This document shows, piece by piece, positions 3,870 through 63,385 of a DNA stretch of 64,000 nucleotides. The translations under genes were made by a program, and so were the position numbers. The notes under the pieces were generated by a model. It worked only from the letters and a program-made list of their open reading frames with translations, was not told the DNA's origin and did not search any database. The DNA is from Leucoraja erinacea (lineage: Eukaryota), in contig NC_073393.1 in NCBI RefSeq assembly GCF_028641065.1, positions 21,514,001 to 21,578,000 on the forward strand, given 5' to 3'. Positions within the stretch are counted from its first letter, which is position 1; each line of letters begins with the position of its first letter.

Positions 3870-4331
3870 GTAAGTAAACAATCAGGTGCTTTTTGCTTTG
3901 AATACATGTTATATGGGAATATTGCATACATGATCATCATTATTTCATCCAATGAATTTTGACTGATATAACTAGGAAACATTATGTGGTTGACTTAATT
4001 TCCTGTGAATTGTCTGATTTTTTAAACATCTTTACCAGAAAATCCACCTTAGGGCAACTAAAGATGGTTAATATATGTGTGATGTGGCAAACTCATTAAT
4101 ATACTCAACAGCTTCCAAAAAAAGTTTAAGCAGCTAATTACAGAATGTTGCTTTGTGTAAAGAATCACCTGTTCCAGAGAAACATAGAAAATAGGTGCAG
4201 GAGGAGGCTATTCGGCCCTTCGAGCCAGCACCGCCATTCATTGTGATCATGGCTGATCGTCCCCTATCAATAACCCGTGCCTGCCTTCTCCCCATATCCC
4301 TTGACTCCACTAGCCCCTAGAGCTCTATCTA

Positions 4332-5949
4332 CAGTGGCTTGCAAAAGTATTCATACCCCTTGAACTTTTCCACATTTTGTCACGTTACAACCACAAACGT
4401 AAATGTATTTTATTGGGATTTTATGTGATAGACCAACACAAAGTGGTGCATAATTGTGAAGTGGAACGAAAATGATACAAGGTTTTCAAATTTTTTTACA
4501 AATAAAAAACTGAAAAGTGTGGCGTGCAAAAGTATTCAGCCCCCCTGAGTCAATACTTTGTAGAACCACCTTTTGCTGCAATTACAGCTGCAAGTCTTTT
4601 GGGGTATGTCTCGACCAGCTTTGCACATCTAGAGACTGAAATGTTTGCCCATTCTTCTTTGCAAAATAGCTCAAGCTCAGTCAGATTGGATGGAGAGCGT
4701 TTGTGAACAGCAATTTTCAAGTCTTGCCAGAGATTCTCAATTGGATTTAGGTCTGGACTTTCACTGGGCCATTCTAACACATGAATATGCTTTGATCTAA
4801 ACCATTCCATAGTCACTCTGGCTGTATGTTTAGGGTCGTTGTCCTGCTGGAAGGTGAACCTCCGCCCCAGTCTCAAGTCTTTTGCAGACTCTAACAGGTT
4901 TTCATCCAAGATTGCCCTGTATTTGGCTCCATCCATCTTCCCATCAACTCTGACCAGCTTCGCTGTCCCTGCTGAAGAAAAGCATCCCCACAGCATGATG
5001 CTGCCACAACCATGTTTCACAGTGGGGATGGTGTGTTCAGGGTGATGTGCAGTGTTAGTTTTCCACCACACATAGCGTTTTGCATTTAGGCCAAAAACTT
5101 CAATTTTGGTCTCATCTGACCAGAGCACCATCCTCCACATGTTTGCTGTGTCCCCCACATGGCTTGTTGCAAACTGCAAACGGGATTTCTTATGGCTTTT
5201 TTTCAACAATGGCTTTCTTGTTACCACTCTTCCATAAAGGCCCGATTTGTGGAGTGCACAACTAATAGTTGTCCTGTGGACAGATTCTCCCACCTGAGCT
5301 GTGGATCTCTGCAGCTCCTCCAGAGTTACCATGGGCCTCTTGGCTGCTTCTCTGATCAATGCGCTCCTTGCCCAGTCTGTCAGTTTAGGTGGACGGCCAT
5401 GTCTTGGTAGGTTTGCAGTTGTGCCATACTCTTTCCATTTTCGGATGATGGATTGAACAGTGCTCTGTGAGATGTTCAAAGCTTGGGATATTTTTTTATA
5501 ACCTAACCCTGCTTTAAACTTCTCCACAACTTTATCCCTGACCTGTCTGGTGTGTTCCTTGGGCTTCATGATGCTGTTTGTTCACTATTGTTCTCTAACA
5601 AACCTCTGAGGCCTTTACAGAACAGCTGTATTTATACTGAGATTAGATTACACACAAGTGGACTGTATTTATTAATTAGGTGACTTCTGAAGGCAATTGG
5701 TTGCACTGGATTTTATTTACGGGTATCAGAGTAAAGGGGGCTGAATACTTTTGCATGCCACACTTTTCAGTTTTTTATTTGTAAAAAAAAATTGAAAACC
5801 ATGTATAATTTTCCTTCCACTTCACAATTATGCACCACTTTGTGTTGGTCTATCACATAAAATCCCAATAAAATACATTTACGTTTGTGGTTTTAACGTG
5901 ACAAAATGTGGAAAAGTTCAAGGGGTATGAATACTTTTGCAAGCCACTG
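4332..5949 (-). mobile_element. Full-length Tc1 (IR/DR, Passport-like) DNA transposon
   Basis: About 210-bp TIRs starting CAGTGGCTTGCAAAAGTATTCATACCCC. TA TSD at 4330-31 and 5950-51. Removing it restores the CR1 sequence CTATCTAACTCTC. Confidence 0.96.
4550..5569 (-). CDS. Tc1 DD34E transposase, uninterrupted 339 aa
   Basis: Paired-like HTH with GRPPK, WSDETK, QQDNDPKH and SPDLNPIE. I count 34 residues between the second D and the E. Confidence 0.95.
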   Translation of the reverse strand: MKPKEHTRQVRDKVVEKFKAGLGYKKISQALNISQSTVQSIIRKWKEYGTTANLPRHGRPPKLTDWARSALIREAAKRPMVTLEELQRSTAQVGESVHRTTISCALHKSGLYGRVVTRKPLLKKSHKKSRLQFATSHVGDTANMWRMVLWSDETKIEVFGLNAKRYVWWKTNTAHHPEHTIPTVKHGCGSIMLWGCFSSAGTAKLVRVDGKMDGAKYRAILDENLLESAKDLRLGRRFTFQQDNDPKHTARVTMEWFRSKHIHVLEWPSESPDLNPIENLWQDLKIAVHKRSPSNLTELELFCKEEWANISVSRCAKLVETYPKRLAAVIAAKGGSTKY

Positions 5950-8900
5950 TAACTCTCTCTTAAATCCATCCAGTGATTTGGCCTCCACTGCCCTCTGTAG
6001 AATTCCATAAATTCACAACTCTCTGGGTGAAAACGTTTTTTTCTCACCTCAGTCTTAAATGACCTCCCCTTTATTCTAAGACTGTGGCCCCTGGTTCTGG
6101 ACTCGCCCAACATTGGGAAACATTTTCCTGCATCTAGCTTGTCCAGTCCTTTTATAATTTTATATGTTTCTATAAGAGCTCCCCTCATCCTTCTAAACTC
6201 CAGTGAATAAAAGCCTAGTCATTTCAATTTTCCTCATATGACAGTCCCGCCATCCCAGGGATCAATCTTGTGAACCTACGCTGCACTGCCTCAATCACAA
6301 GGATGTCCTTCCTCAAATTAGGAGATCAAAACTGTACACAATACTCCAGATGTGGTCTCACCAGAGCCCTATACAACTGCAGAAGAACCGCTTTATTCCT
6401 ATACTGAAATCCTCTTGGTATGAAGGCCAACATTCCATTAGCTTTCTTCACAGCCTGCTGTACTACCTGTGAGCCAACTTTCAGTGACTGGTGTAACCTC
6501 TTATCTAACCTAACCCCATTGAGATAATAATCTGCCCCCTTGTTTTTGCTACCAAAGTGGATAACCTCACATTTATCTATATTATACTGCATCTGCCACG
6601 CATCTGCCCACTCACTCAGCCTGTCCAGGTCACACTGCAACCTCCTAACATCCTCTTCACAGTTCACACTGCCACCCAGCTATGTGTCAGCCGCAAACTT
6701 GCTAGTGTTGCTCCTAATTCCCTCTTCCAAATCATTATTATATATGGTAAACAGTTGCGGCCCCAACACCGAGCCTTGCGGCACTCCACTCGCCACTGAC
6801 TGCCATTCTGAAAAGGACCCGTTCACTCCTACTCTTGGTCTGCCAACCAATTTTCTATCCACGTCAACACCCTACCCCCAATACCATGTGCTATAATTTT
6901 AGTCACCAATCTCCCGTGTGGGACCTTATCAAAGGCTTTCTGAAAGTCTAAATACACTACATCCACTGGCACCCCTTCATCCATTTTACTTGTCACATCC
7001 TCAAAAAATTACAGAAGATTAGTCAAGCATGATTTCCCTTTCATAAATCCATGTTGACTTGGACTAATCCTTTTACTGCTATCCAAATGCACCATTATTA
7101 CCTCTTTAATAATTGACTCCAACATCTTTCCCACCACCGAAGTCAGGCTAAATGGTCTGTAATTCCCAGTTTTCTCTCTCGCTCCTTTCTTGAAAAGTGG
7201 GATAACATTAGCTATCCTCCAATCCACAGGAACTGATCCTGAATCTATAGAACATTGGAAAATGATCACCAATGCGTCCGCTATTTCTAGAGCCACCTCC
7301 CTGAGGACCCTGGGATGCAGACCATCAGGCCCAGGGGATTTATCATCCTTCAGTCCCATTAGCCTACACAATACTATTTCTCGCCTAATGAAAATTTATT
7401 TCAGTTCCTCTACCCCCTTAGATCCTCTGTCCTCCAGTACATCTGGGAGATTGTTTGTGTCTTCCTTAGTGAAGACAGATCCGAAGTACCTATTCAACTC
7501 TTCCACCATTTCCTTGTTGCCCATAATAATTTCACCCGTGTCTGCCTTCAAGGGACCCACATTTGACTTTGCTACTCTTTTTCCCTTAACATATCTAAAG
7601 AAGCTTTTACTGTCCTTCTTTATATTCCTGGCCAGCTTCCCTTCTTACTTCATCTTTTCAGCCCGTATTGCCCGTTTTGTTTCCTTCTGTTGTCCTATGA
7701 AAGTTTCCCAATCCTCTGGCTTCTGGCTACTCTTTGCTGTGTTATACATTTTAGTTTTATTCTATCCCTAACTTCTCTTGTCAGCCATGGTTGCTTCCTA
7801 CTCCCTTAGAATCTTTCTTCCTTTTTGGAATGAAATGATCCTGCGACTTCCGGATTATGCCCAGAAATTCCTGCCATTGCTGTTCCACCATCATTCCTGC
7901 TAGGATCCCTTTCCAGTCTACTTTGGTCAGCTCCCCTCTCATGCCTTCATAGTCCCCTTTGTTCAACTGCATCACTGCCACGTCCGATTTAACGTTCTCC
8001 TTCTCAAATTGCAGATTAAAACTAATCATATTATGATCACTACCTCCAAGCGTTCCTTTACCTCGAGTTCTCTTATCATATCTGGTTCATTGGACAACAC
8101 TAAATCCAGAATTGCCTTTTCTCTGGTCGGCTCCATTACAAGCTGCTCTAAGAATCCATCTCGGAGGCATTCTACAAACTCTTTCTTGGGGTCCTGAACC
8201 AACCTGATTTTCCCAGTCTACCTGCATATTGAAATCCCCCATCACCACAGTGGCATTACCTTTGTTACATGCCAGTTTTAACTCCTGCTGCAACGTACAC
8301 CCTACATCCTGGCTACTATTTAGGGGTCTGTAAATAACACCAATTAGTGTCTTCTTGCCTTTACAATTCCTCAACTCAATCCACAATGATTCTACCTCGT
8401 CAGTCCCTATGTCTTCCCTCACAATGGACTGAATTCCATCCCTCACCAGCAGAGCTGCCCCCTCTCCTCTGCTCACCTGCCTGTCCTTTCTATAGGATGT
8501 ATAACCCTGAATATTAAGTTCCCAGGCCCGATCCTCCTGCAGCCACGTCTCAGTAATCCCCACAATGTCATATCTACCAACCTCTAACTGAGCCTCAAAC
8601 TCATCTACGTTACTTCTTATACTTAACGCATTCATATACAATACTTTTAATTCCTCATGCATCTCACCTTTCACATCGATCCCTATTACACTTGGCCATA
8701 CTCTCCTATCGCTTTGTGAGCTTCCTTTCCCGTTAATTCTGGGGTCATGAACCATCCCTTTTCACTCTTTCCCATTAACTCCATCCTCGACTATCCCATT
8801 TGACACCGCACCATAGAAAAGTAACCATTTAGTTCATCAAGCTTGATCACTGTTTAATGGGATCTAAGACATCACAAACTAGAAATTCGTTCACATAATT

Positions 8901-20442: not shown

Positions 20443-20670
20443 CAATGGTGAGTCTCTGGAACTCTGCCGCAGAGGGTAGTCGAGGCCAGTTCATTGGCTA
20501 TATTTAAGAGGGAGTTAGATGTGGCCCTTGTGGCTAAGGGGATCAGAGGGTAAGGAGAGAAGGCAGGTACGGGATACTGAGTTGGATGATCAGCCATGAT
20601 CATATTGAATGGCGGTGCAGGCTCGAAGGGCCGAATGGCCTACTCCTGCACCTAATTTCTATGTTTCTAT
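20443..20670 (+). mobile_element. CR1 3' fragment with (TTTCTATG)n tail, tail-to-tail with the next CR1
   Basis: CR1 3' UTR ending ...CCTACTCCTGCACCTAATTTCTATGTTTCTAT. Confidence 0.85.
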
Positions 20671-20673
20671 CTG

Positions 20674-23600
20674 CAATAGACAATAGGTGCAGGAGTAGGC
20701 CATTCGGCCCTTCGAGCCAGCACCGCCATTCAATGTGATCATGGCTGATCATCCCCAATCAGCACCCCGTTCCTGCCTTCTCCCCATATCCCCTGACTCC
20801 GCTATTTTTAAGAGCCCAATCTAACCATTGAAAGCATCCAGAGAACCTGCCTCCACCGCCCTCTGAGGCAGAGAATTCCACCGACTCACCATTCTCTGTG
20901 AAAAAAAGTGTCTCCTCGTCTCCGTTCTAAATGGCTTACTCCTTATTCTTAAACTGTGGCCCCTGGTTCTGGGCTCCCCCAACATCGGGAACATGTTTCC
21001 TGCCTCTAGTGTGTCCAAGCCATTAACAATCTTATATGTTTCAAAGAAATCCTCTCTCATCCTTCTACACTCCAGAGTGTACAAGCCCAGCTGCTCCATT
21101 CTCTCAGCATATGACAGTCCCGCCATCCCGGGAATTAACCTTGTAAACCTACGCTGCACTCCCTCAATAGCAAGAATGTCATTTATCAAATTAGGGGACC
21201 AAAACTGCACACAATACTCCAGGTGTGGTCTCACTGGGGCTCTGTACAACTGCAGAAGGACCTCTTTGCTCCTACATTCGATTCCTCTTGTTATGAAGGC
21301 CAACATGCCATTCGCTTTCTTCACTGCCTGCTGTATCTACATGCTTACTTTCATAGACTGATGTACAAGGATCCCCAGATCCCGTTGTACTTCCCCTTTT
21401 CCCAACTTATTTAGATAGTAATCTGCCTTCCTGTTTTTGCTACCAAAGTGGATAACCACACATTTATCCACATTAAACTTCATCTGCCATGCATCTACCC
21501 ACTCCCCCAACCTGTCCAAGTCACCCTGCATTCTCATAGCATCCTCCTCACAGTTCACACTGCCACCCAGCTTTGTGTCATCTGCAAATTTGCTAATGTT
21601 ACTTTGAATCCCTTCATCCAAATCATTGATGTATATTGTAAATAGCTGCGGTCCCAGCACCGAGCCTTGCGGTACCCCACTAGTCACTGCCTGCCATTCT
21701 GAAAGGGACCCGTTAATCCCTACTCTTTGTTTCCTGTCTGCCAACCACTTCTCTATCCATGTCAGCACTCTACCCCCAATACCATGTGCCCTACTTTGCC
21801 CACTAATCTCCTATGTGGGACCTTATCAAATGCTTTCTGAAAGTCCAGGTACACTACATCCACTGGCTCTCCCTTGTCCATTTTCCTAGTTACATCTTCA
21901 AAAAATCCCAGAAGATTAGTCAAGCATGATTTCCCCTTCGTAAATCCATGCTGACTCGGACCGATCCTGTTACTGCTATCCAAATGTGCCGCTATCTCAT
22001 CTTTTATAATTGACTCCAGCATCTTCCCCATCACCGATGTCAGGCTAACTGACCTATAATTCCCTGTTTTTTCTCTCCCGCATTTCTTAAAATGTGGGGT
22101 AACATTAGCTACCCTCCAATCCACAGGAACTGATCCTGAGTCTATAGAACATTGGAAAATTATCACCAATGCATCCACGATTTCTAGAGCCACTTCCTTA
22201 AGTACCCTGGGATGCAGACCATCAGGCCCTGGGGATTTATCAGTCTTCAGTCCCATCAGTCTATCCAACACCATTTCCTGCCTAATGATGATTTCCTTCC
22301 GTTCTTCTGTCACCCCAGATCCTCTGGCCACTACTATATCAGGAAGATTGTTTGTGTCCTCCTTAGTGAAGACAGATCCAAAGTAACTGTTCAACTTATC
22401 TTTTCCTTGTTCCCCATAATAAATTCACCTTTTTCGGTCCTCAAGGGTCCACTTTGGTCTCAACTATTTTTTTTCCTCTTCACATACCTAAAGATGCTTT
22501 TACTATCCTGCTTTACATTCTTGGCTAGCTTACCTTCATACATCATCTTTTCTCCCTTTATTGTCTTTTTGGTTATCTTCTGTTGTTCTTTGAACATTAC
22601 CCAATCCTCTTGCTTCCCACTCATCTTTGCTACGTTGTACTTCTTCGCTTTAATTTTTATACTGTCCCTGACGTCCCTTGTCAGCCATGGTCGTCCCTTT
22701 CTCCCCTTGGAATCTTTCTTCTAGGAATGAACTGATCCTGCACCTTCTGTATTATTCCTAGAAATACCTGCCATTTTTGTTCCACTGTCATCCCTGCTAG
22801 TGTATCTTTCCAGTCAACTTTGGCCAGCTCCTCCCTCATGGCCCCATAGTCCCCTTTATTCAACTGCAACACTGACACCTCTGATCTACTCTTCTCCCGC
22901 TCCAATTGTAGATTAATCCTGACCATGTTATGGTCACTGCCTCCTAATGGCTCATTAACCTCGATGTCCTTTATCAAATCCGGTTCATTACATAATACTA
23001 AATCCAGAATTGTCTTCTCCCTGGTAGGCTCCAATACAAGCTGTTCAAAGAATCCATCACAAAGGCACTCTACAAAGTCCCTTTCTTGGGGTCCAGTACC
23101 AACCTGATTTTCCCAGTCTACCTGCATATTGAAATCCTCCATAACAATCACAGCATTAATTTTACTACATGCCAATTTTAACTCCTGATTCAACTTGCAC
23201 TCTATGTCCAGGCTACTGTTTGGGGGCCTGTAGATTAGTCCCATTAGGGTATGTTTACCCTTACAATTCCTTAGTTCTGGCCATACTGACTCCACATCTC
23301 CTGTTTCAATGTCACCCCTTTGCAAGGAACTGAATTTCATTCCTCACCAACATGGCAACCCCACCCCCTCTGCCACATGTCAGTCTTTTCGATAGGAAGA
23401 ATACCCTTGAATATTCAGTTCCCAGCCCTGGCCCTCGCACCCATGTCTCAGTAATTCCCACACCATCTTTCTTGCCAGTTTCGAACTGAGCTTCAAGCTC
23501 GTCCACTTTATTCCTTATACTTTGCTAATTCATAGACACTACTTTGACCTCCATATTCACTTCCCCCCTCGCAATTAGCCCTGACCTTACTCTGTTGTCC

Positions 23601-24745
23601 ATTCTCAAGCTTTTCTTCCCATTAATTCGAGAATATTGTGTAATTTTTCCTGTAGCCACTTCCCCTTCAACTCCATCTTTATAATCCCAATTTGTCAATC
23701 CCTCCCCCCCACTATTTAGCTTAAACCCACACGTGTAGCCCTAGCAAACCTGCCTGCCAGAATATCGGCCCCTCTCCAGTTAAGGTGTAACCCGTCCCTT
23801 TTGTACATGTCACCCCTACCCCAGAAGAGATCCCAGTGGTATATAAATCTAAATCCTTGCTCCCTACACCAGCCCCTTAGCCACACATTCAGATCCCCTA
23901 TCTCCCTGTTCCTGTCCTCTCTAGTACTTGGTACTGGAAGCAATCCAGAGATAACCACCCTAGAAGTCCAGCATTTCAGTCTTCTTCCCAACTCTCTGAA
24001 GTCATGTTGGAGAACCTCGTTCCTCTTCTTCCCGATGTCGTTTGTGCCTACTTGCACAACTACTGCCGGCTGTTCACCTTCTCTCTTGAGGATGTTCAGA
24101 ATTCGGCTTGTGACATCCTGAACCCTGGCACCAGGAAGGCAGCAGACCATCCTCGCATCTCGTCTGCCGCCACAGAATCTCCTGTCCACTCCTCGGACAA
24201 TGGAGTCACCCACCACTAGGACTCTGCCCGACGTCGGTCTCGCCGGTCGAGTCCCATCTCCAGGATTGGAGCCACCGACGTGTCCGCCGCTCGGACTAGC
24301 AACCTTGTCTCCAGTTCTCAAGAGGGCGTACCTGTTTTCATTAGGCACCGCCACCTGAGTCTTTGACGATTTCGATTTCCACCCTTTCCGTCACATACCT
24401 TGGTTCTTCCCTGTAACCTCGGCGTGACTACCTCACTGTAGGTCCTGTCCAGGAAACTCGTTTTCCCGGATGGCCCTGAGGTCATCCAGCTGCTTCTCCA
24501 GTGCCCCAACACGGTCCTTTAGGAGCTGAAGCTGGACGCACTTGCCTCAGTTGTAGCAGCCAGAGGCTCCATCTGTGTCCCTGGGTTCCCACATTCTGCA
24601 AGCTTCACACTGTCTCATCTGCCCCGACATGTGTTCACCACGCTCCGTCCTCTCGAGCTTTATGAGGTTCCTCCTCTCCTCAGCCTCCTCGCCGAAGACT
24701 CTTGAGCAAAAGACTCACACTTTACTAACAAGCCAAAGACTCACA
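20674..24745 (-). mobile_element. Near full-length CR1 LINE (ORF1 esterase + ORF2 EN/RT), frameshifted
   Basis: ORF1 at 23716-24354 has SGNH motifs GDS, LPGA, GTND, DGLHL. ORF2 fragments span 20821-23506, including FADD. Confidence 0.93.
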
Positions 24746-27190: not shown

Positions 27191-27410
27191 GTTGTTTAAG
27201 AAGGAACTGCAGATGCTGGAGAATCGAAGGTTACACAGAAAAGCTGGAGAAACTCAGCGGGTGAAGCAGCATCAAAGGAGCGAAGAAAATAGGCTACGTT
27301 CCGGGCCGAAACCCTTCTTCAGACGGTTTCGGCCCGAAACGTTGCCTATTTCCTTCGCTCCATAGATGCTGCTGCACCCGCTGAGTTTCTCCAGCTTTTC
27401 TGTGTAACCT
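27191..27410. mobile_element. Palindromic Penelope-derived short element
   Basis: Inverted arms. 14-bp direct repeat TCATTTGTCACTAC at 27177-27190 and 27411-27424. Confidence 0.8.
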
Positions 27411-27563
27411 TCATTTGTCACTACTATGGTGATCTCTTGTGCAGAGTTAAGTATCTAATTGCTGCCTATCTTTATGAGATAGAGAACCTGTTAACAAATT
27501 GTGAATCTTTTCATTTACTAAATTAAATATTAAAACATATGTTTTAATACACTGTTTTTATAG

Positions 27564-30893: not shown

Positions 30894-32834
30894 CAGTCCT
30901 CCATAATGTTTGGGACAAAGACCCATCATTTATTTATTTGCCTCTGTACTCCACAATGTGAGATTTGTAATAGAAAAAAAATCACATGTGGTTAAAATGC
31001 ACATTCTCAGATTTTAATAAAGGCCATTTTTATACATTTTGGTTTCACCATGTAGAAATTACAGCAGTGTTTATACATAGTCCCCTTATTTCAGGGCACC
31101 ATAATGTTTGGGACACAGCAGTGTCATGTAAATGAAAGTAGTCATGTTTAGTATTTTGTTGCATATCCTTTGCATGCAATGACTCTTGAAGTCTGCGATT
31201 CATGGACATCACCAGTTGCCGAGTGTCTTTTCGGGTGATGCTTTGCCAGGCCTGTATTGCAGCCATCTTTACTTTATGCTTGTTCTGGAGGCTAGTCCCC
31301 TTCAGTTTTCTCTTCAGCATATAAAAGGCATGCTCAATTGGGTTCAGATCGGGTGATTCTTGGCCACTCAAGAATTGAACATTTTTTAGCTTTGAAAAAC
31401 TCTTTTTGTTGCTTTTGAGATCATTGTCTTGCTGTAGAATGAACCGCTGGCCAATGAGTTTTGAGGCATTTGTTTGAACTTGAGCAGATAGAATGTGTTT
31501 ATACACTTCAGCATTAATTATGTTACTACCATCAGCAGTTGTATCATCAATGAAGATAAGTGAGCCAGTACCTTCAACAGCCATACATGCCCAGGCCATA
31601 ACACTCCCACCACTGTGTTTCACAGATGTGGTGGTGTGCTTTGGATCTTTAGCGGTTCCTTCTCTCCTCCATACTTGCTCTTGCTATTACACTGATTACT
31701 CCAGAACCAGGGGCCACAGTTTAAGAATAAGGCTTAAGCCATTTAGAACGGAGACGAGGAAACACTTTTTCTCACAGAGTGGTGAGTCTTTGGAATTCTC
31801 TGCCTCAGAGGGCGGTGGATGCAGGTTCTCTGGATGCTTTCAAGAGAGAGCTAGATAGGGCTCTTAAAAATAGCAGAGTCGGGGAATGTGGGGAGAAGGC
31901 AGGAACGGGGTACTGATTGTGGATGATCAGCCATAATCATATTGAATGACGGTGCTGGCTCGAAGGGCCGAATGGCCTACTCCTGCGTCTATTGTCTATT
32001 GATATGTTAATCTTCGTCTCATCTGCCCACGTCCTTTTTCCAGAACTGTAGTTGCTATTTTAAGTACTTCTTGGCAAGCTGTAAACTGGCCATCCAATTT
32101 TTGCAGCTAACCAGTGGTTTGCATCTCGTAGTGTAGCCTCTGTATTTCTGTTCATGAAGTCTTCTGCGGACAGGGGTAATTGACAAATCCACAGCTGACT
32201 CCTGAAGAGTGTTTCTGATCTGTCGGACAGGTGTTTGGGGATTTTTCTTTATTATAGAGAGAATTCTTCTGTCATCAGCTGTGAAGGTCTTCCTTGGCCT
32301 GCAAGTCCCTTTGCGATTAGTAAGCTCACCAGTGCTCTTTTTTCTTAATGATGTCCCAACCGTTGATGTTGGTAAGCCTAAGGTTTGGCTGATGTCTCTA
32401 ACAGTTTTATTCTTGTTTCTCAGTTTCATAATGGCTTCATTGACTTTCATTGGCACAACTTTGGTCCTCATGTTGATAAACAGCAATAAAAGTTTTGAAA
32501 TGTGATGGAAAGACTGGAGGAAAGACTAGGTGCTGATAGCTCTCTTATAGCTGAATTAAGGAGGCATTTAAACACCCATGAGCAATTACAAACACTTGTG
32601 AAGCCATGTGTCCCAAACATTATAGTGTCCTGAAATGGGGAGACTATGTACAACACAGCTGTAATGTCCATATGGTGAAACCAAAATGTATAAAATCACC
32701 CATTAATAAAATCTGACAATGTGCACTTTAACCACATGTGATTTTTTTTTTTCTATTACAATCCTTAAATTGTGGAGTACAGAGGCAAATAAATAAATGA
32801 TGGTTCTTTGTCCCAAACATTATGGAGGGCACTG
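30894..32834 (-). mobile_element. Decayed Tc1-family transposon (second family) with a CR1 3' fragment inserted at about 31699-32000
   Basis: Long TIRs CAGT(G)CCCTCCATAATGTTTGGGACAAAGA, right-hand TA. Transposase fragments with KHSGGSVM.W, QQDND and SPDLNPIE. Confidence 0.9.
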
Positions 32835-32867
32835 TACATAGAGGCCACTAATATATTTTTATAGGTG

Positions 32868-33267
32868 TGTGGCGGCACTAGGTGATGGGCCACGCACTGT
32901 ACATAACCGTCGGCTCTTTGGGGGGTCACGTGTCTCAGTGACGAGAGATAGGGGTCACGGTTTGGTCACGGGTGCCCCTGGGGAATATTTAAGGGTTAAT
33001 CATGTCGGGATCACCAAATGTAGCGGACGTGGAGTTGTCCGTTAAAAAACGAGGCAGACACGAAGTTTGTTCGAAATACTGGTTCTTTATTACTACACTA
33101 ATTCTCCTCACTCACCAACCCTGTGCGAGCGCGATTAACCCTTAAATACTCCCCAGGGGCACCCGTGACTAAACCGTGACCCCTATCTCTCGTCACCGGG
33201 CACATGCGACCCCCCAAAGAGCCGAATGTTATGTACAGTGCGTGGCCCATCACCCAGTGCCGCCACA
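32868..33267 (-). mobile_element. Fold-back LTR-derived insertion: full LTR (33267-33019) + tRNA-Trp PBS (33016-32999) + inverted U3 copy (32868-33001)
   Basis: The LTR runs TGTGGCGG...CCGCTACA with TATTTAA and AATAAA. PBS TGGTGATCCCGACATGAT. About 134-bp inverted arms. GGTG direct repeat on both flanks. Confidence 0.85.
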
Positions 33268-35689
33268 GGTGTAACAAAGGCTTTACTTGGATGGACATGA
33301 GATGCTGCACCAGATGATAATTTTGGAGTTGCAAGGTGCCAACTATTTTCTGTGAGCACTTTCAGGGGTGTAGTTTCTCCAAATACTTGTCTAATTTCCA
33401 GCAAAATAAATCTGTTTTCTACTTCAGGGTCCTTGTTGAATGTGCCTTTTTATCTTTGCTGTGGCTATGCTAAGACTGTATCACACTTTGCGATAAAGTG
33501 TTTTTATTAAGAAAATCTGACATTTTTCTTCCTCTTGGTGTTGACTGGCCTAGATGTCTCTTCCTTCATCCTTGACTCCTTTGGGGTTGGTCTTTAGGCG
33601 CTTGGGCCTTGGATGTTATTGACAACACTGAAGAACACTCACATGCCTTGGTTGTTGGCATGTTGTTAAGACTCATGTGCTCTCTCTACTCACTCTGTTC
33701 ATCAGATAATGTGTTTTGCATCATAGGATACATTCGCTCAGATTCTCATGGCCCTATTTGAATCTATATACATCTAACTTAAAAATAATCAATTGTTTCT
33801 GTCATGCAACTAAACTAAAAGATGGCACTACATCTCCTTCGAGAGTAGTTGCGAGTGATGATTCATGTATATTCAGCATCAATGCATTTGGATATTGATT
33901 TTGTATTCCCACTCGAACATCAGAGGAATAGATATTAGAAATCATATGATAGATTTAAACTGTGCATGTATTAAATTGTTTATATGTGAACTTTTAATTC
34001 CCAATTTTCATGCCGCCAAAAATATTCACTCTTTTCCCACTGAAAGCAATTGTTTTTTAATTAATGGCCTATTAAGTTTCCAGTTTGTTGTACATGAAGG
34101 ACTAAGACTAAAAGCTGTTTTCAGGCCAGGAAGAAATTGAGTCAAAGCAGCATGGTGAAGAGAAGCCTATTAAAAGTAGTAAGAAAACCAAGGGAGAAAT
34201 GAGAAATGGGTGGGAGACATTGTAAAGGGGTTAAGAAAGGTGAGGGGTGGGAGATGGAAGAGAGAGGGAAGAAGGATTAGCATCAGTGTACTGTCAAAGC
34301 AGTGGCATTACATAAAATCATGGCTGATCTGATTATAACCTCAACTCGGTACTCTCAAGTCCTGCAGTAACCTTTCACCCACTTCCTTGTCAAGTTTTTA
34401 TCTAGCGCTGCTGAAAGAATATTCATAGACTCTATTTTTACCTGCCTTTGGGGAAGCGTGTGTTCCAAAAATTGATGGTCTGAAAGAATATATTTTTGTT
34501 TATCGCTGTCTTCTAATAGGTGACCACCAAATTTTTAAGTAGTGTCCCCCTTGGTATATGGACATACTTATCTGTTTTATAGTAAATGTCTACTCTGTGT
34601 GCTGAAGCAAAACAAGAATTTCATTGTCCTATACAGGGACACATGACAATAAACTCACTTGGACATTGAAATCTTTTTCACAAGCCAAGCAGCTTATTGC
34701 AGTGATTAGGCCAATGCATTCACTTAATTTTTTGATGAATCATATACTTTGACATCAGGAACCCACATCTTAAGAGCTCTGAAGTCTCTCGCCGTTCAGA
34801 TAAAATGCCCAGAGCATCTGCAGTCTCCTATATGCTTTTTATTTTTCTGCTAAAATTGAGTTTCATTTTTTTCATATTATACTCCAGTTGGCAGATCTTT
34901 GCTATTTAATCAGCAATTAGTGATGAGCAATAAATATTGTTATTAAATTTGTATAACCCTTTTGAAGAGATTTTCATCCAAAGTTTTTTATCTAAGTTTT
35001 TTATCCAAAGTCAATATATTTTCTTTTTGGGAATGGTCATTGAGGTTAATTGTAAAGTAATGGTTGTGTTATGGAAATCGCAATAGATATTTTTTACAAA
35101 ATGCAAATAATATATAGGACATGAAGTTAAATGTAACCGTGACTGCTTGGCAATTTGAATTCATTTTTTAATCTGTAAGTATTTAAAGTTACAAAGATTC
35201 AAATGGTTCATCCATATTCTTTCGGAAGGAAATCCTTGCCAATCTGTGACTCCATTCCACATTAATTGTCTCACAACACCCAGGTTCAGGAACAGCTACT
35301 TCCCCACAGCCGTCAGGCTATTAAACTCACCATCAAACAAACTCTGAACAATAACAGCCTATTGCACATTAACTGCTTATTTATTGTGTGTATATATATG
35401 GTCTATGGTATATAGACAAACTGAACTTTATCTCCTGTTCTGTATTATGTTTACATATTCTGTTGTGCTGCAGCAAGCAAGAATGTCATTGTCCTATCTG
35501 GGACACATGACAATAAAACTTTTGACTCTTGTTCAATTCTGAACATTGCTCTGAATAGCCCAGCAATGGTACCAGTAATAATTGACAATGGGCTTCAACA
35601 AACTAAACGGCCAAAGGCATTGTTTCTTTACTTTATTTCCAACTTCCTACATCACTGATAATAAGAGAAAAAATGTACATTGCGTGCAG

Positions 35690-57904: not shown

Positions 57905-59806
57905 TCATTCAACATTCACATCTAGTGGTCCCGAATGGAGAGTTTGGTTATCCGAATCAAGATAAGATTCCTCTGGAGAAAGATTTTCAATCACCTTTTC
58001 AATGCCTTTACTAACTATTGGTTCCAAGCTGCTGGCTTGCAGACTTTCAACTTCACCAGTGATACTCTGTTCATCGTCCACTGTGCTGTGGTTTCTCAGT
58101 TCACCTTCCAGAGTAGTTCCATTTATAACAGAGATTTCTGGGTGGTCATCTTCAGTTTTGCTGGTGATGGATTCATTTAGTTTGCTATCATCTACAAAAA
58201 CTGTAGAGTTCTCTGTGGAACTATTTTTTTCAGCAGTTACTTTGGTCGAAACATCTTCAAGGTGTGCTGGGTTTTCTGGTGCAGGATCCTCTGAAGTTTC
58301 CAGTTTTATAATTTCTTGATCCAAACATTCACGATTTTCTGGTGCTACTTCAACTGAATGCAACAGCGATTCATTCTCCTCCAGCACTTCATCTGGTGGT
58401 TGTGGATTAATATTAGCATCAACTGCTTCATCTCCAAATGCTAACTGTGCATCACTCTTAATTTCTTCCTCCTGTAAACCTTCACCATACACAGTCAGTT
58501 TAATATCTGGTATTAGTTCAGAGTTGGTCTTTAGCAAGGATATTTCTATGCTATCTTGGCAGCTAACTGGTTCCACTGTCTGTTCATAGTTGGTTTCAGT
58601 CATCTCTGTGCCCAGACAAGTATTTTCAGGACCAGATTCTCCAACCAATGGATCAGCTTGGACTGCATCTGTCACACCGCAAGAGTCCATCTGTGCCATG
58701 TCTACAGCTACATTTCCAGATCCCTTCAATGACTGGCCGTGATCCTCAAACTCAGCAACATTGCCATCTGCAAGAGCCAAGTTATCCTGCACACAGTCAG
58801 ACTGCTCACCAGATTCGAGTGTATTTTGGGCCATAGAATTTTGTTGTTCAATTACTTCTCCCCAAGCTTCATCTTGAGTGCTTGGTTTAGTCACATCTTT
58901 CTCCAGATCCGCACACAGGGCCACTTCATTCTTTAGCACAACATCAATAGGTGTTTCTTCAATTATTGCTCCCAAATTTGGTTCTTCGTCTTCCTTGGAG
59001 AAGTCACATTTAACTGGAGATTCAGGCAGTGTCTCCTGGATGGATGATTCCATTTCTTTTGGAGCAGGTGCCAGAGGTGTCTCGTGACTGACAGGCAAAG
59101 ACATTGCAGTGTGCAATACCTCTGCAGAAACCACTTCAACAATTTTGTCAGCATCTGCTTGAACACTGAGGTTGCCAGAGGAGTTTCCTTCTAGATGCTC
59201 ATCAAGGATTGGAGCAGCTTGTTCATCTAAGCTCGATTTCCCAGTTGAAGGGTCTTTGACAATGTTAGTCACACCTTCACCTGCATCCAAATTTGATTTT
59301 AGAGTCTCTCCACCTGGAAGTTCTTTGGTCTCAGGTTCAGTTTTACTTGACATGGACTCATCTGGAACTTCATCCGCTGAGGTAGTCTCTGGGACAGCAT
59401 TGGATTTCACATCAGCCTCTGTTGATCGACAGTGTTCTTCCCGGTCAGGCATTTCCTTTGTTGTTTCAACCAAACTGGCAGGCGTTACATTCTCTTGTGT
59501 TTCAGAACCTTGTGCAAGTTCAGTGGAGGCACTCCCTACCTCTGCATTGACACCCCTTTCTGTAGCTTCAACATCCGCTGTCACCAAAGTAGTTTGTTTT
59601 TCTCCAGGTTTTTCATCTACTTTTTTTAGAGCTTCACCGCCTGCTTGTAACTCACTTGATGCTTTAAATTGGTCCTTTGATGCACCTTTGTTCTCAGGCT
59701 CATTGTGTTTTACTTCAGGCTTTTCAGTGGACTCTGTTGCACTCTTGTTCTCCTTGGGCTCACTCACATTATAGCCTCTACGCTTTCGGCCAAGTCTGCC
59801 ACCCAT
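57905..59806 (-). CDS. BASP1-like acidic, probably disordered and N-myristoylated protein, 633 aa, single coding exon
   Basis: Long non-repeat ORF with strong Kozak context (AGCATGG). Splice acceptor ctttccacttgcag 8 nt upstream. N-terminus MGGRLGRKRRGYNV vs BASP1 MGGKLSKKKKGYNV. E/D/S/T/P-rich body. Confidence 0.85.
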   Translation of the reverse strand: MGGRLGRKRRGYNVSEPKENKSATESTEKPEVKHNEPENKGASKDQFKASSELQAGGEALKKVDEKPGEKQTTLVTADVEATERGVNAEVGSASTELAQGSETQENVTPASLVETTKEMPDREEHCRSTEADVKSNAVPETTSADEVPDESMSSKTEPETKELPGGETLKSNLDAGEGVTNIVKDPSTGKSSLDEQAAPILDEHLEGNSSGNLSVQADADKIVEVVSAEVLHTAMSLPVSHETPLAPAPKEMESSIQETLPESPVKCDFSKEDEEPNLGAIIEETPIDVVLKNEVALCADLEKDVTKPSTQDEAWGEVIEQQNSMAQNTLESGEQSDCVQDNLALADGNVAEFEDHGQSLKGSGNVAVDMAQMDSCGVTDAVQADPLVGESGPENTCLGTEMTETNYEQTVEPVSCQDSIEISLLKTNSELIPDIKLTVYGEGLQEEEIKSDAQLAFGDEAVDANINPQPPDEVLEENESLLHSVEVAPENRECLDQEIIKLETSEDPAPENPAHLEDVSTKVTAEKNSSTENSTVFVDDSKLNESITSKTEDDHPEISVINGTTLEGELRNHSTVDDEQSITGEVESLQASSLEPIVSKGIEKVIENLSPEESYLDSDNQTLHSGPLDVNVE

Positions 59807-62800
59807 GCTGTTAACTGCAAGTGGAAAGTGAGATTAAGCTAGGTGGTAATGAGTGGGCAAGTTCAAACAAATATAAAGCACAAGAAATATTTTCATTCCA
59901 AGCAAACACAAGATTAATGCGTTAAAACATTTGCAAACTCAAATGACCCCCTCCAACTCGAGCTGCCCAGTATTCTAATATTGGTCGTTACAGAGGCAGC
60001 TTTAAACGCATAATTTTAGAGGATATCTCCAACCCTACTCAGCCACCAAACCCAAGCACGATCAGTTGAAGGTTGACCCTTCATTTTACAGTAGTTTGAA
60101 AATCAGATTCATATCCTGCTCCCACCAGCTTAAATTTGCTTTGTCCAAACCCGACTCATCCACCTTTTCATTTGCAATGAAATGCCACCAAATCAAAATG
60201 GTCAGATGTTTCTGCTTTGAGAGTATTCTACCATTTGTGGACACTTGGTGTTTGACTCACTCACTTATACATGTACCAAGTGGCATAGGAAGTGCTGTAC
60301 TATGCTGCAATTGTGTAAATTGGAATACAAAATATGCCTCATTATACCCAGAGCAAGACTGACAGGAGCCCAATTTCTACCGAGGCACATTACGACATCT
60401 CACTTACCATCACACGTGGTTAGTGTCACTTTCTCCCCAACCACATTCATTTAACCAGACGCTCAGATTTCCAACTTTGCCTGGTTTCAGACAGGTGGAA
60501 TGTACAGTGTCTCTCCAAAGTGAACAGCAAACCGCCTCTTCCACCCCCACCCCCGATTCTGCTCGACCCACCGAGTTCCTCCAACAAATCAGAATGCACA
60601 ATAGTTGATCAGAATGCAGATGTAATTAACCAAACCAATGCAAATTCTACCAAGGACAGCCAAACGATGTTGGGATGTCATGTTACAGCTGTGTAGAATA
60701 TCGGTGAAGCACACTTGCCCCTCTGTAGTTCTAGTCACCTCACGTAGTAGGTGACTAGAACTAGTTAAGTTGGAAAGGTACAGAAAACATTCGCAAAGAT
60801 GTAGGACAGGAAATCTTCAGTTTCAAGGAGAGGTTGGAGCCTTTTCACCTCTGGAATGTTGGAGATAATCAAAGATGTATACAAATGCTGTTGGGTGTAG
60901 ATAAATGTACAGGGTACATGGATTGGAAAAGCAGAGGATATGATACAAACTTAGATAAATGAGACCAGCTCAGACTGGCAACTTGGTCATCATGGACAAA
61001 TTAGACTGAAAGATCCATTTCAATGCTGCATGACTGATTGTTACACAAAAACAGACAATATCCAGCCAACTCATCATGCCCTGATATCATTTTGCACGTC
61101 ATCATTGCTTGTTCATGCAAAGTTGAAGAGCTTACTATTCAATGAGTGAAGGTCAACATACCATTACTAGCTTGTTACACCTGCATGTTTGCTTTCTGTG
61201 ACCGATGTACAAGGACATTATATCCTTTGTACATTAACATTTCCTAATCTAACACTATTTAAATATGTGTTTTTTGTTCTCCCTGCCATGCGACTGAGCT
61301 ACATTCATCCACAACACTTCAGCCACAGGGTGGCTCCGTGATAGAGTTGCCGTCATTCCAACGTGTTGGAGCTCATGTGTACAGACTCCACTCACTACAC
61401 CAGTGTCCTTGTCCAACAGAGAAGGATTTGAACTTGAACATAATGCAAGAGGGGGGGGATGCAGAGGACTTATTTGGAGGTAGACAATAGAGATCTTTGA
61501 ACTCAAAATTCAGTACATCTTGCACTAAATGTTGTATCCTTCAACTGTGCCCTCTGGACAGCTTGATTGCATTCCTGTATAGGCTTTTCTTTGACTGGAT
61601 AACACACAAACAAAAACTTTTCACTGTACCTCAGTACATGTGACAATAATTACAGCCTTGTCCACACTGACCAAGTTGGCATACTGGGCTAGTCCCATTT
61701 GCCTCAGACCTCTAAGCCCTCCCTATCCATATATTTGTCCAAATAACTTTTAAAAGTGTAATTGTATCCATTTACATAGCATTTGGGTGCTGTAGAACCA
61801 TGACCCAAGCTCACCCTTTGCCCTGCTCACTCGCCCTATAGTCACGAAATCAGCCAGGACACCAGTCTGAAGAAAGATCCCTACTCAAAACGTCACCTGG
61901 CCATGTTCTCCAGAGATGCTGCCTGGCCTGCTGTGTTACTCCAGCACTTTGTGCATGTTTTTGGAAATCAGCTTCTGCAGTTCCTTGTTTCTACACTTGG
62001 GGTTTAGAGTTTGCTGAACTGGAGGGATTTGTTATTTCGTGCCAATCAAATCTTTCCTGTCAGTCTGTAGAAGGGTCCCAACCCGTAACGCCGACGCCCA
62101 TCGCTCCACAGATGCTGTCTGACCCACCGAGCTGCCCTAGCACTTGTCTCTTGTCTAGCACCTGCAGATTCTTGGTTTCCAAATTGTTCTACCCGTTTAA
62201 ATCTGTAAGTGTTCCTCCGCTAAGACTATTAATGCACGATGCTGCATTCTACACGAAAGCAACAATCTCAAAACCGGTTCCATTATTTATTCAGTATTGA
62301 GTTACCTTTCGCAGAAACACTATAGATATCAGATATTCCCCAAGTGTTGCTCAGCGGGCCAGGCAGCATCTCCTGGAGAGATGCCCTTCTTTTCAGAAGA
62401 GAAACAAAGAATTGCAGGTAGACAAAAATGCTGGAGAAACTCAGCAGGTGAGGCAGCAACTGTATGCTACCTCGCCCGCTGAGTTTCTCCAGCATTTTTG
62501 TCTACCTTCGATTTTACAGCATCTGCAGTTCCTTCTTAAACAAAGAATTGCAGGTGTTGGTTTATACCAAATTTAGACACAAAGTACTGGAGTAACTCAG
62601 CGGGTCAGGCGGCAACTCTGGAGAACATGACTCGGTGGCATTTCAGATCGGGACCTTTCTCCAGACTGCAGAAAGGAAACTCATCCATGTTCTCCAGAAA
62701 GGCTGCCTGCCCCGCCGAGTTATCACGGCGCTGTGTGATTTGCAAGATTCCACCTGCAGTTCCTCGCATCTACCGATAAGGACACGGAAAGGCAACGTTT

Positions 62801-63129
62801 CCTATACAAAAGGTTGGCTTGTTAATTCCCTCCACATATGCTGCCTGACACCCGAATTCCCCCTGACTTCCTCAAGATACCAGCATCTGCAGTTCCTGCT
62901 GTCTCTACCTCCCTCCAAGACTACCTCCCTTCTTTCTACCCGAGGTTCCTGATCCTCGTACACCCCCTCCCTCCCCTCCCCACCCCCACCGGCGTTAGCA
63001 AGGCTCGACTAATCCGCCGACGGACAAGCCACGACTTGCCAAACCCAGGCGGAGGGGTTCACCGCGAACATGGGCCATATGAGCGACCGTGAAGCTGGTT
63101 CTGGTTCTAGTTCGTTAGAGGAAGTGGAG

Positions 63130-63385
63130 ATAGACACAAAAAGCTGGAGTAACTCAGCGGGTCAGGCAGCATCTCTGGAGAAAAGCAGTAGGTGACGCTT
63201 CGGGTAGAGACCCTTCTTCAGACGAGTCAGGGGGAAGCCATCCCCCAATCTCCAAGTCTGAAGAAGGGTCTCGACCCGAAACGTCACCTATTCCTTTTTT
63301 CCGGAGATGCTGCCTGACCCGCTGAGTTACTCCAGCTTGGTGTGTCTGTCTTCTGTTTAAACCAGCATCTGCAGTTCCTTCATAC
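63130..63385. mobile_element. Palindromic Penelope-derived element with hammerhead-like cores
   Basis: About 90-bp inverted arms. CTGAAGA-AGGGTCTCGACCC-GAAACGTC at 63258-63285. Confidence 0.7.

Follow-up and report, generated by a model that had tools for sequence, protein, structure and literature searches.

A 400-bp fold-back LTR insert with two U3 ends in Leucoraja erinacea, a probable product of mis-primed plus-strand strong-stop DNA

An insert of 400 bp in Leucoraja erinacea (positions 32868-33267 of the window, i.e., the whole analysed stretch of 64,000 nucleotides from contig NC_073393.1, positions 21,514,001 to 21,578,000) is a derivative of a Gypsy (Ty3/Metaviridae) LTR retrotransposon. 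The insert probably represents plus-strand strong-stop DNA that was mis-primed, became double-stranded with two U3 ends and was inserted by a Gypsy integrase. It is single-copy, yet it is one member of a recurrent class that is found across LTR families primed by tRNA-Trp.

Structure of the insert

Read along the minus strand, the insert consists of an LTR (33267-33019), a TT spacer, a primer-binding site (PBS; 33016-32999) and an inverted arm. The LTR (33019-33267, minus strand) is a complete 249-bp copy, TGT...ACA, from a decayed Gypsy family; it carries a TATA-like box, TATTTAA, at LTR position 120-126 (33142-33148, minus strand) and an AATAAA signal at LTR position 177-182 (33086-33091, minus strand), and its boundaries are set independently by a collection of 60 full-length LTR copies, to which the focal one belongs. 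The spacer that leads from the LTR to the PBS (33017-33018, minus strand) is the same in the parent family. The 18-nt PBS (32999-33016, minus strand) matches the 3' end of mature tRNA-Trp with two mismatches, which fall at positions 7 and 14 when it is compared with the complement of the tRNA-Trp gene of this genome (L080), and its final three letters, GAT, are also the first three letters of the inverted arm. The latter (32868-33001, plus strand) repeats the LTR's first 134 bp, the inferred U3 with its TATA-like box, in inverted orientation, and it supplies the second TGT att end of the insert. The whole is flanked by a 4-bp target-site duplication (TSD), GGTG, at 32864-32867 and 33268-33271.

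The two arms (32868-33001 and 33133-33267) share 92.6% identity (E 2e-52), with nine substitutions over 134 aligned columns and one indel. Thus, the coordinates bear out the initial annotation with regard to the 249-bp LTR, the 2-nt spacer, the 18-nt tRNA-Trp PBS with two mismatches, the inverted arm of approx. 134 bp, the GGTG on both flanks and the "roughly 10" differences between the arms. The insert has a MITE-like anatomy, being short (400 bp) and non-coding, with terminal inverted repeats (TIRs) of 134 bp and a 4-bp TSD. It has no polypurine tract ahead of the second LTR part, and that part is inverted. ARAGORN found no tRNA gene in the window, nor in 13 loci with tRNA read-through sequence (see below).

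The insert is surrounded by Tc1 and LINE remnants. A 1.9-kb Tc1-like element (30898-32828), with TIRs of about 220 bp (88%) and a remnant of a transposase HTH, ends about 35 bp upstream of the insert, to which it appears unrelated; a second LINE-like piece lies inside this element (31700-32001). Elsewhere, the window contains a younger Tc1-like element (4330-5951) that has TIRs of 216 bp (96.8%) and a frame of 343 aa matching HTH and DDE_3, a LINE remnant on the minus strand (20666-24390) with RT, endonuclease and an upstream GDSL-esterase frame, a 642-aa stop-free frame without a Pfam match in a strongly skewed stretch (57905-59833, minus strand), and short palindromic arrangements of common repeats (20444-20893, 27226-27412, 62410-62667 and 63128-63351).

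The parent family and the number of copies

The parent is a decayed Gypsy family that makes 4-bp TSDs. In the 2.19-Gb assembly, the DNA search for this family returned at least 82 matches from 40 of 204 candidates scored, and the pattern of the U3 start occurs in 82 places; conclusions on copy number rest on the pattern counts. Among the loci examined there are 96 LTR matches, 60 of them full-length. The parent Gypsy element with the focal LTR, which the initial annotation had suggested looking for, is represented by a coding element (L092) in which RVT_1, RT_RNaseH, Integrase_H2C2 and a weak rve_3 match (below the cut-off) stand in Gypsy order between two copies of the focal LTR, the two LTRs being bounded by an ATAT TSD. 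The PBS for tRNA-Trp that had been expected in the parent does pair with this tRNA, but over 15 nt only rather than 18. The 4-bp TSD is exact in 11, has one mismatch in 8 and has two mismatches in 5 of the 24 solo-LTR candidates of the family, a class that includes at least one mis-sorted 5' LTR.

The focal junction has one match in the genome at zero mismatches; at three mismatches there is one further match (L258), which is the PBS of another family. Likewise, the two arms form the only inverted pair of U3 starts within 10 kb among the 82 U3 starts. An amplified family was rejected, and the copy-number check proposed at the outset therefore points to a single event and not to a mobile family. 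The junctions of the other six intact fold-backs described below were also tested, and none recurred as an identical copy with new flanks. Hence, the idea of a route from an LTR retrotransposon to a MITE-like element was not borne out by the one junction, the one close pair among 82 U3 starts and the absence of recurrence for all six other junctions. No later mobility was seen for any fold-back insert in this genome.

The arms differ by 6.7%, compared with 9.8-16.8% over the same stretch for seven presumed 5'/3' LTR pairs, of which three have exact TSDs. Only 19 of 2926 pairs within the family are as close as the focal arms, and the nearest unrelated copy lies 6.0% from one of them. Judged from these distances, the similarity of the arms may be taken as a sign of one origin that discriminates weakly. 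Shared private variants were considered as proof of a single origin and proved uninformative; no private variant is common to both arms.

The junction in public sequencing runs

In run X18, contig record 18 is co-linear with window positions 32891-33040 and crosses the junction, extending about 110 letters to one side of it and 39 to the other, with 5 differing letters and 7 gaps. Its depth of 26, compared with 24.7 in the flank, is that of single-copy sequence. The right boundary is present in all four runs compared out of 24 listed, which represent four organism codes and four studies and were all compared as contigs: in each, a contig begins at 33238 and continues into the right flank. Relative to the window, the four show 0, 1, 10 and 7 substitutions, although these contigs hold only 30 letters inside the insert, one short of the bridging rule. 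Therefore, the insert appears real and common to related organisms. No empty site and no joint skipping the insert occurs among the joints listed for the four runs, all of which have the right boundary. A joint from 32994 to 33139 on opposite strands was not counted as support, since a normal LTR gives the same on the palindrome.

Palindromes are prone to error in assemblies, and this is what could be said for a fold-back created as an assembly or library chimera. The arms of the insert, however, differ at 10 positions, one contig crosses the junction at single-copy depth and the right boundary recurs in four of four runs from four studies, so that the probability of such an artefact is close to negligible.

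The primer-binding site and pairing at the junction

The genome has five tRNA-Trp genes, none of which encodes the CCA end that the inserts copy. The PBS of the parent follows tRNA-Trp for 15 nt and then diverges: in the scored 5' LTR copies, the letters after nt 15 are CCA in 20 of 25, GAT in 2 and other letters in 3. The GAT-type pair comprises the focal insert and L032, which is itself an aberrant product. After nt 15, the focal PBS thus reads GAT, as tRNA-Trp does. From this comparison, a tRNA rather than a genomic PBS as the template of the 18-nt end is favoured, not proven, in the focal insert alone, because the inverted arm supplies GAT as well. The argument from GAT is limited to the focal family, since the normal PBS of several others has a length of 18 nt to begin with.

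Pairing at the junction was analysed by duplex folding with DNA parameters, the last 10 nt being used as the primer. For the tRNA-type 3' end, the best pairing in the focal LTR (-7.6 kcal/mol) is predicted at about LTR position 133-142 (33126-33135, minus strand), a site that coincides with the end of the inverted arm. The junction is the best 3'-paired site for the tRNA-type 18-nt end in 38 of 59 family LTRs, and in 28 of 59 with a 12-nt primer. By comparison, the 18-nt end of the parent finds its best site there in 0-1 of 59, and the 15-nt end in 9-10 of 59; the latter, which partly resembles the priming site in an alignment, does not have the junction among its top five sites in the focal LTR. 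In the MFE fold of the natural 269-nt LTR plus PBS, the tail of the PBS is unpaired, and the snap-back is not formed by itself.

Fold-back inserts in other Trp-primed families

The CCA-ended 18-mer of tRNA-Trp has 117 exact matches in the genome (99 + 18), of which 116 were examined; a CpG-relaxed pattern gave 127 matches, and 20 additional loci were examined among the 100 matches listed. Seven fold-backs with both ends intact were found, the focal insert included, the ends being fixed by the inverted repeat or by LTR termini. Six of the seven have an exact direct 4-bp TSD: GGTG on both sides of the focal insert, ACTT at both L140 and L169, AAGT at L242, ATGC at L060 and the palindromic ATAT at L128. 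The chance of a 4-mer match between two unrelated sites is about 1.7% each. The seventh, L138, has no TSD; its flanks (CCAG/CTGG) form an inverted and not a direct repeat, as would fit an event after integration. Either an inversion at this locus may extend into the flank, or decay at CpG may have altered a CCGG target.

L060 (G000:C4, about 50001200-50002560) is a 1362-bp insert with inverted LTRs and an ATGC TSD, in which 38 nt of tRNA copy stand ahead of the inverted part and about 670 bp are apparently inverted internal sequence. L128 and L135 (G000:C7, 75.10 and 75.20 Mb) are one fold-back in two copies of opposite orientation; they share about 3 kb of flank at 97% and are therefore a segmental duplicate. 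L128 also carries a 90-bp secondary palindrome over the PBS. A multi-jump product, L181, has the TSD ATAC. Nine further sites were tested for a reverse-complement LTR right after the PBS, and no second end was recognisable in them; eight (L132, L137, L141, L149, L184, L237, L239 and L243) match LTRs of related families, and at L174 the sequence after the PBS matched only its own LTR, weakly. L148 and L110, in which inversions lie within the internal region, were left out of the fold-back count, and L254 and other weak pattern matches, which are without an LTR, were dropped.

A junction common to six loci (L140, L169, L137, L138, L149 and L242) is one in which the tail of the PBS continues with CC and then returns onto the start of the PBS. 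This CC may represent a misincorporation at A58 followed by one more templated base.

Read-through into the tRNA

At 55 of the 116 exact 18-mer sites, two loci being counted twice as tandem copies, the tRNA copy continues beyond A58 (up to 48 nt). Of these 55 sites, 21 have a mismatch at position 58 (C in 15, G in 3 and A in 3). By comparison, position 56 has 7 mismatches and positions 55-48 have 0-3 each, the latter counts being biased low by a selection that allowed at most two mismatches over positions 55-48. Misincorporation by reverse transcriptase is a known signature of m1A, as described in the pertinent part of PMC4787781. The split between C and T at position 57 of the read-through copies corresponds to two variants of the tRNA-Trp gene.

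In fourteen inserts picked by hand, the sequence stops shortly after the tRNA copy, in most cases with a return to the U5 end. Their TSDs are exact in 12 and have one mismatch in 2, a tally that is biased upward, as the right ends were chosen by eye with the left flank partly known. The arrangement of an LTR, a tRNA-Trp copy past A58 and a return to the U5 end, within 4-bp TSDs, is seen at L032 (1259-1542), L049, L056, L070, L072, L073, L241 and L248, among others. Tandem arrangements also occur: at L153 (1500-1700; G000:C25:28041845-28042044), five tandem units of 40-43 bp contain the 18-nt tRNA-Trp match, as if slippage had occurred repeatedly, and at L069 (about 1000-1100; G000:C1427), two tandem rounds of U5 end plus tRNA copy share one GACT TSD.

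Origin of the insert

In the proposed mechanism, reverse transcriptase would copy the LTR together with 18 nt of the tRNA primer, the last 3 nt of which could not pair with the shorter PBS of the parent at the second strand transfer. The 3' end of the strong-stop DNA would instead pair with LTR 133-142 on a plus strand, either its own or that of a second molecule, and extension of the mis-paired end would lead back to the start of U3. The other strand would then be completed with the aid of a second plus-strand primer or a partner molecule, such a second strand or molecule being needed because a lone hairpin has one double-stranded end only. The result would be a linear DNA with two U3 att ends, and its insertion by integrase would make the GGTG duplication. 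As regards the strong-stop origin put forward in the initial annotation, a mis-primed and integrated product is supported by the Gypsy parent, the 4-bp TSDs, the 18-nt as opposed to the 15-nt PBS, the pairing at the junction and the TSD-bounded fold-backs elsewhere; as regards its snap-back step, folding within one molecule and priming on a second plus strand result in the same sequence.

The main rival to the strong-stop reading, an unlikely one, is that an integrated element was later rearranged by replication template switching, with the original TSD kept. The nascent strand would have left at the PBS, copied U3 backwards and rejoined the 3' LTR end via the imperfect terminal inverted repeat, for which the near-complementarity of the LTR ends over 8 nt could be invoked. 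Such a path requires two precise switches and the loss of about 5 kb, and the next three letters of the tRNA would have to appear by chance, for which about 1 in 64 may be estimated. The 15-nt end of the parent is in part microhomologous to the priming site, which is its best one in 9-10 of 59 copies, and the inverted flanks of L138 look post-integration; however, six of the seven fold-backs end exactly at the att end with a direct TSD, and at L060 and the 55 read-through sites the PBS is followed by mature-tRNA sequence, for which reverse transcription is the only source.

It is very unlikely that the insert belongs to a family of MITEs or of non-autonomous Ginger-like DNA transposons with cut-and-paste movement via TGT-ended 134-bp TIRs. 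The TIR length, the TGTNR ends and the 4-bp TSD fit the description of Ginger in the relevant part of PMC2836005, but the TSD is GGTG and not the CCGG/CCGT reported there for Ginger1, only one copy exists, U3 from a Gypsy LTR family makes up the TIRs, with R-U5-PBS as the interior, and the sole duplicated fold-back (L128, L135) is a segmental duplicate. It is more improbable still that two independent LTR insertions in opposite orientation were joined by a deletion, with GGTG matching by chance. Such a chance match of TSDs has a frequency of 1.7%, and the deletion must also end at the PBS and yield GAT. In favour of this reading, the family comprises 82 LTR starts or more, and the distance from either arm to an unrelated copy can be as small as that between the two arms. 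Yet the 82 starts include no second pair on opposite strands within 10 kb, and the same architecture with TSDs is repeated in other families. Auto-integration was likewise rejected, as the junction lies at the PBS end and not at the att end.

If the insert is integrated strong-stop DNA, as is probable, its anatomy also bears on its fate: having no polypurine tract and no second direct LTR, it would not retrotranspose and is therefore a fixed dead end.

Comparison with known systems

According to PMC8599865, plus-strand strong-stop DNA of retroviruses and LTR retrotransposons comprises the LTR plus 18 nt of tRNA copy, synthesis stopping one base before m1A58, and extra tRNA sequence does not match the minus strand; HIV-1 products of a failed second strand transfer cannot complete synthesis or integrate. 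The focal insert contains the same LTR with an 18-nt tRNA copy as these failed retroviral products, but for the fold-backs described here, mis-priming appears to have led to rescue and to fixation in a germ line, with TSDs. Other aberrant products differ in their geometry, as far as they are described in the parts of the sources drawn on here. HIV-1 proviruses with asymmetric LTRs (PMC9278108) likewise have uneven LTR parts, but in direct orientation and with deletions, and the inversion circles formed by auto-integration of plant Copia elements (PMC7197481) likewise contain inverted LTR parts, but are circles joined at the LTR end. Unlike in both, the junction of the focal insert is located at the end of the PBS, and U3 forms the two outer ends.

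TRIM elements, including Helenus and Ajax, share with the insert a short, non-coding, LTR-derived structure with a PBS and, in animals, a 4-bp TSD; however, TRIMs are amplified elements in which a polypurine tract accompanies two direct LTRs, whereas the insert has inverted LTR ends, no such tract and one copy (PMC10886601, in part). The word "inverted" does not occur in the main text of that paper. No such insert appears in the portions of PMC10886601, PMC9278108, PMC7197481, PMC12312487 and PMC12789967 considered here. More generally, no report of this type of fold-back insert was found in the literature searched, in which older retrovirology is thinly covered. Culture-based reports exist of tRNA-containing, rearranged unintegrated retroviral DNA. 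A solo LTR is also an LTR-only remnant within a 4-bp TSD (24 candidates in the parent family), but it has neither a PBS nor an inverted arm. Solo LTRs come from LTR-LTR recombination.

In outer anatomy, the insert looks like a MITE of the Ginger type. Ginger1 and Ginger2, as described in the same part of PMC2836005, have Gypsy-type integrase chemistry, TGTNR ends, TIRs within a range of 40-270 bp that includes that of the insert, and a 4-bp TSD; the insert differs in having no transposase, a single copy, TIRs derived from LTR-U3 and a PBS inside, and its GGTG TSD differs from the Ginger1 target, CCGG or CCGT/ACGG. In that text, Bao et al. regard the path from LTR element to DNA transposon as unclear for Ginger1 and suggest two chance insertions of LTRs in opposite orientation. 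The existence of fold-back inserts, L060 above all, suggests a one-step alternative by reverse transcription to two chance insertions. It is conceivable, if rather doubtful, that Trp-primed Gypsy elements routinely make integrase-competent, TIR-bounded inserts from failed strong-stop DNA, sometimes capturing internal sequence (as in L060), and that this is a one-step origin of Ginger1-like transposons and MITEs, some product having been amplified in a related genome.

Implications

The fold-backs constitute a germ-line fossil record of errors at the second strand transfer, for which cell culture is the usual system of study. They indicate that a Gypsy integrase is able to insert DNA with two U3 ends, and they provide a likely one-step conversion of direct LTRs to terminal inverted repeats, a step that is called unclear for Ginger1 in the cited part of PMC2836005. 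In annotation, such inserts would be mistaken for MITEs, solo LTRs or tRNA pseudogenes. Moreover, the sister inserts record read-through and misincorporation at A58 of the tRNA in vivo, and the modification state of a tRNA thus becomes readable from the genome.
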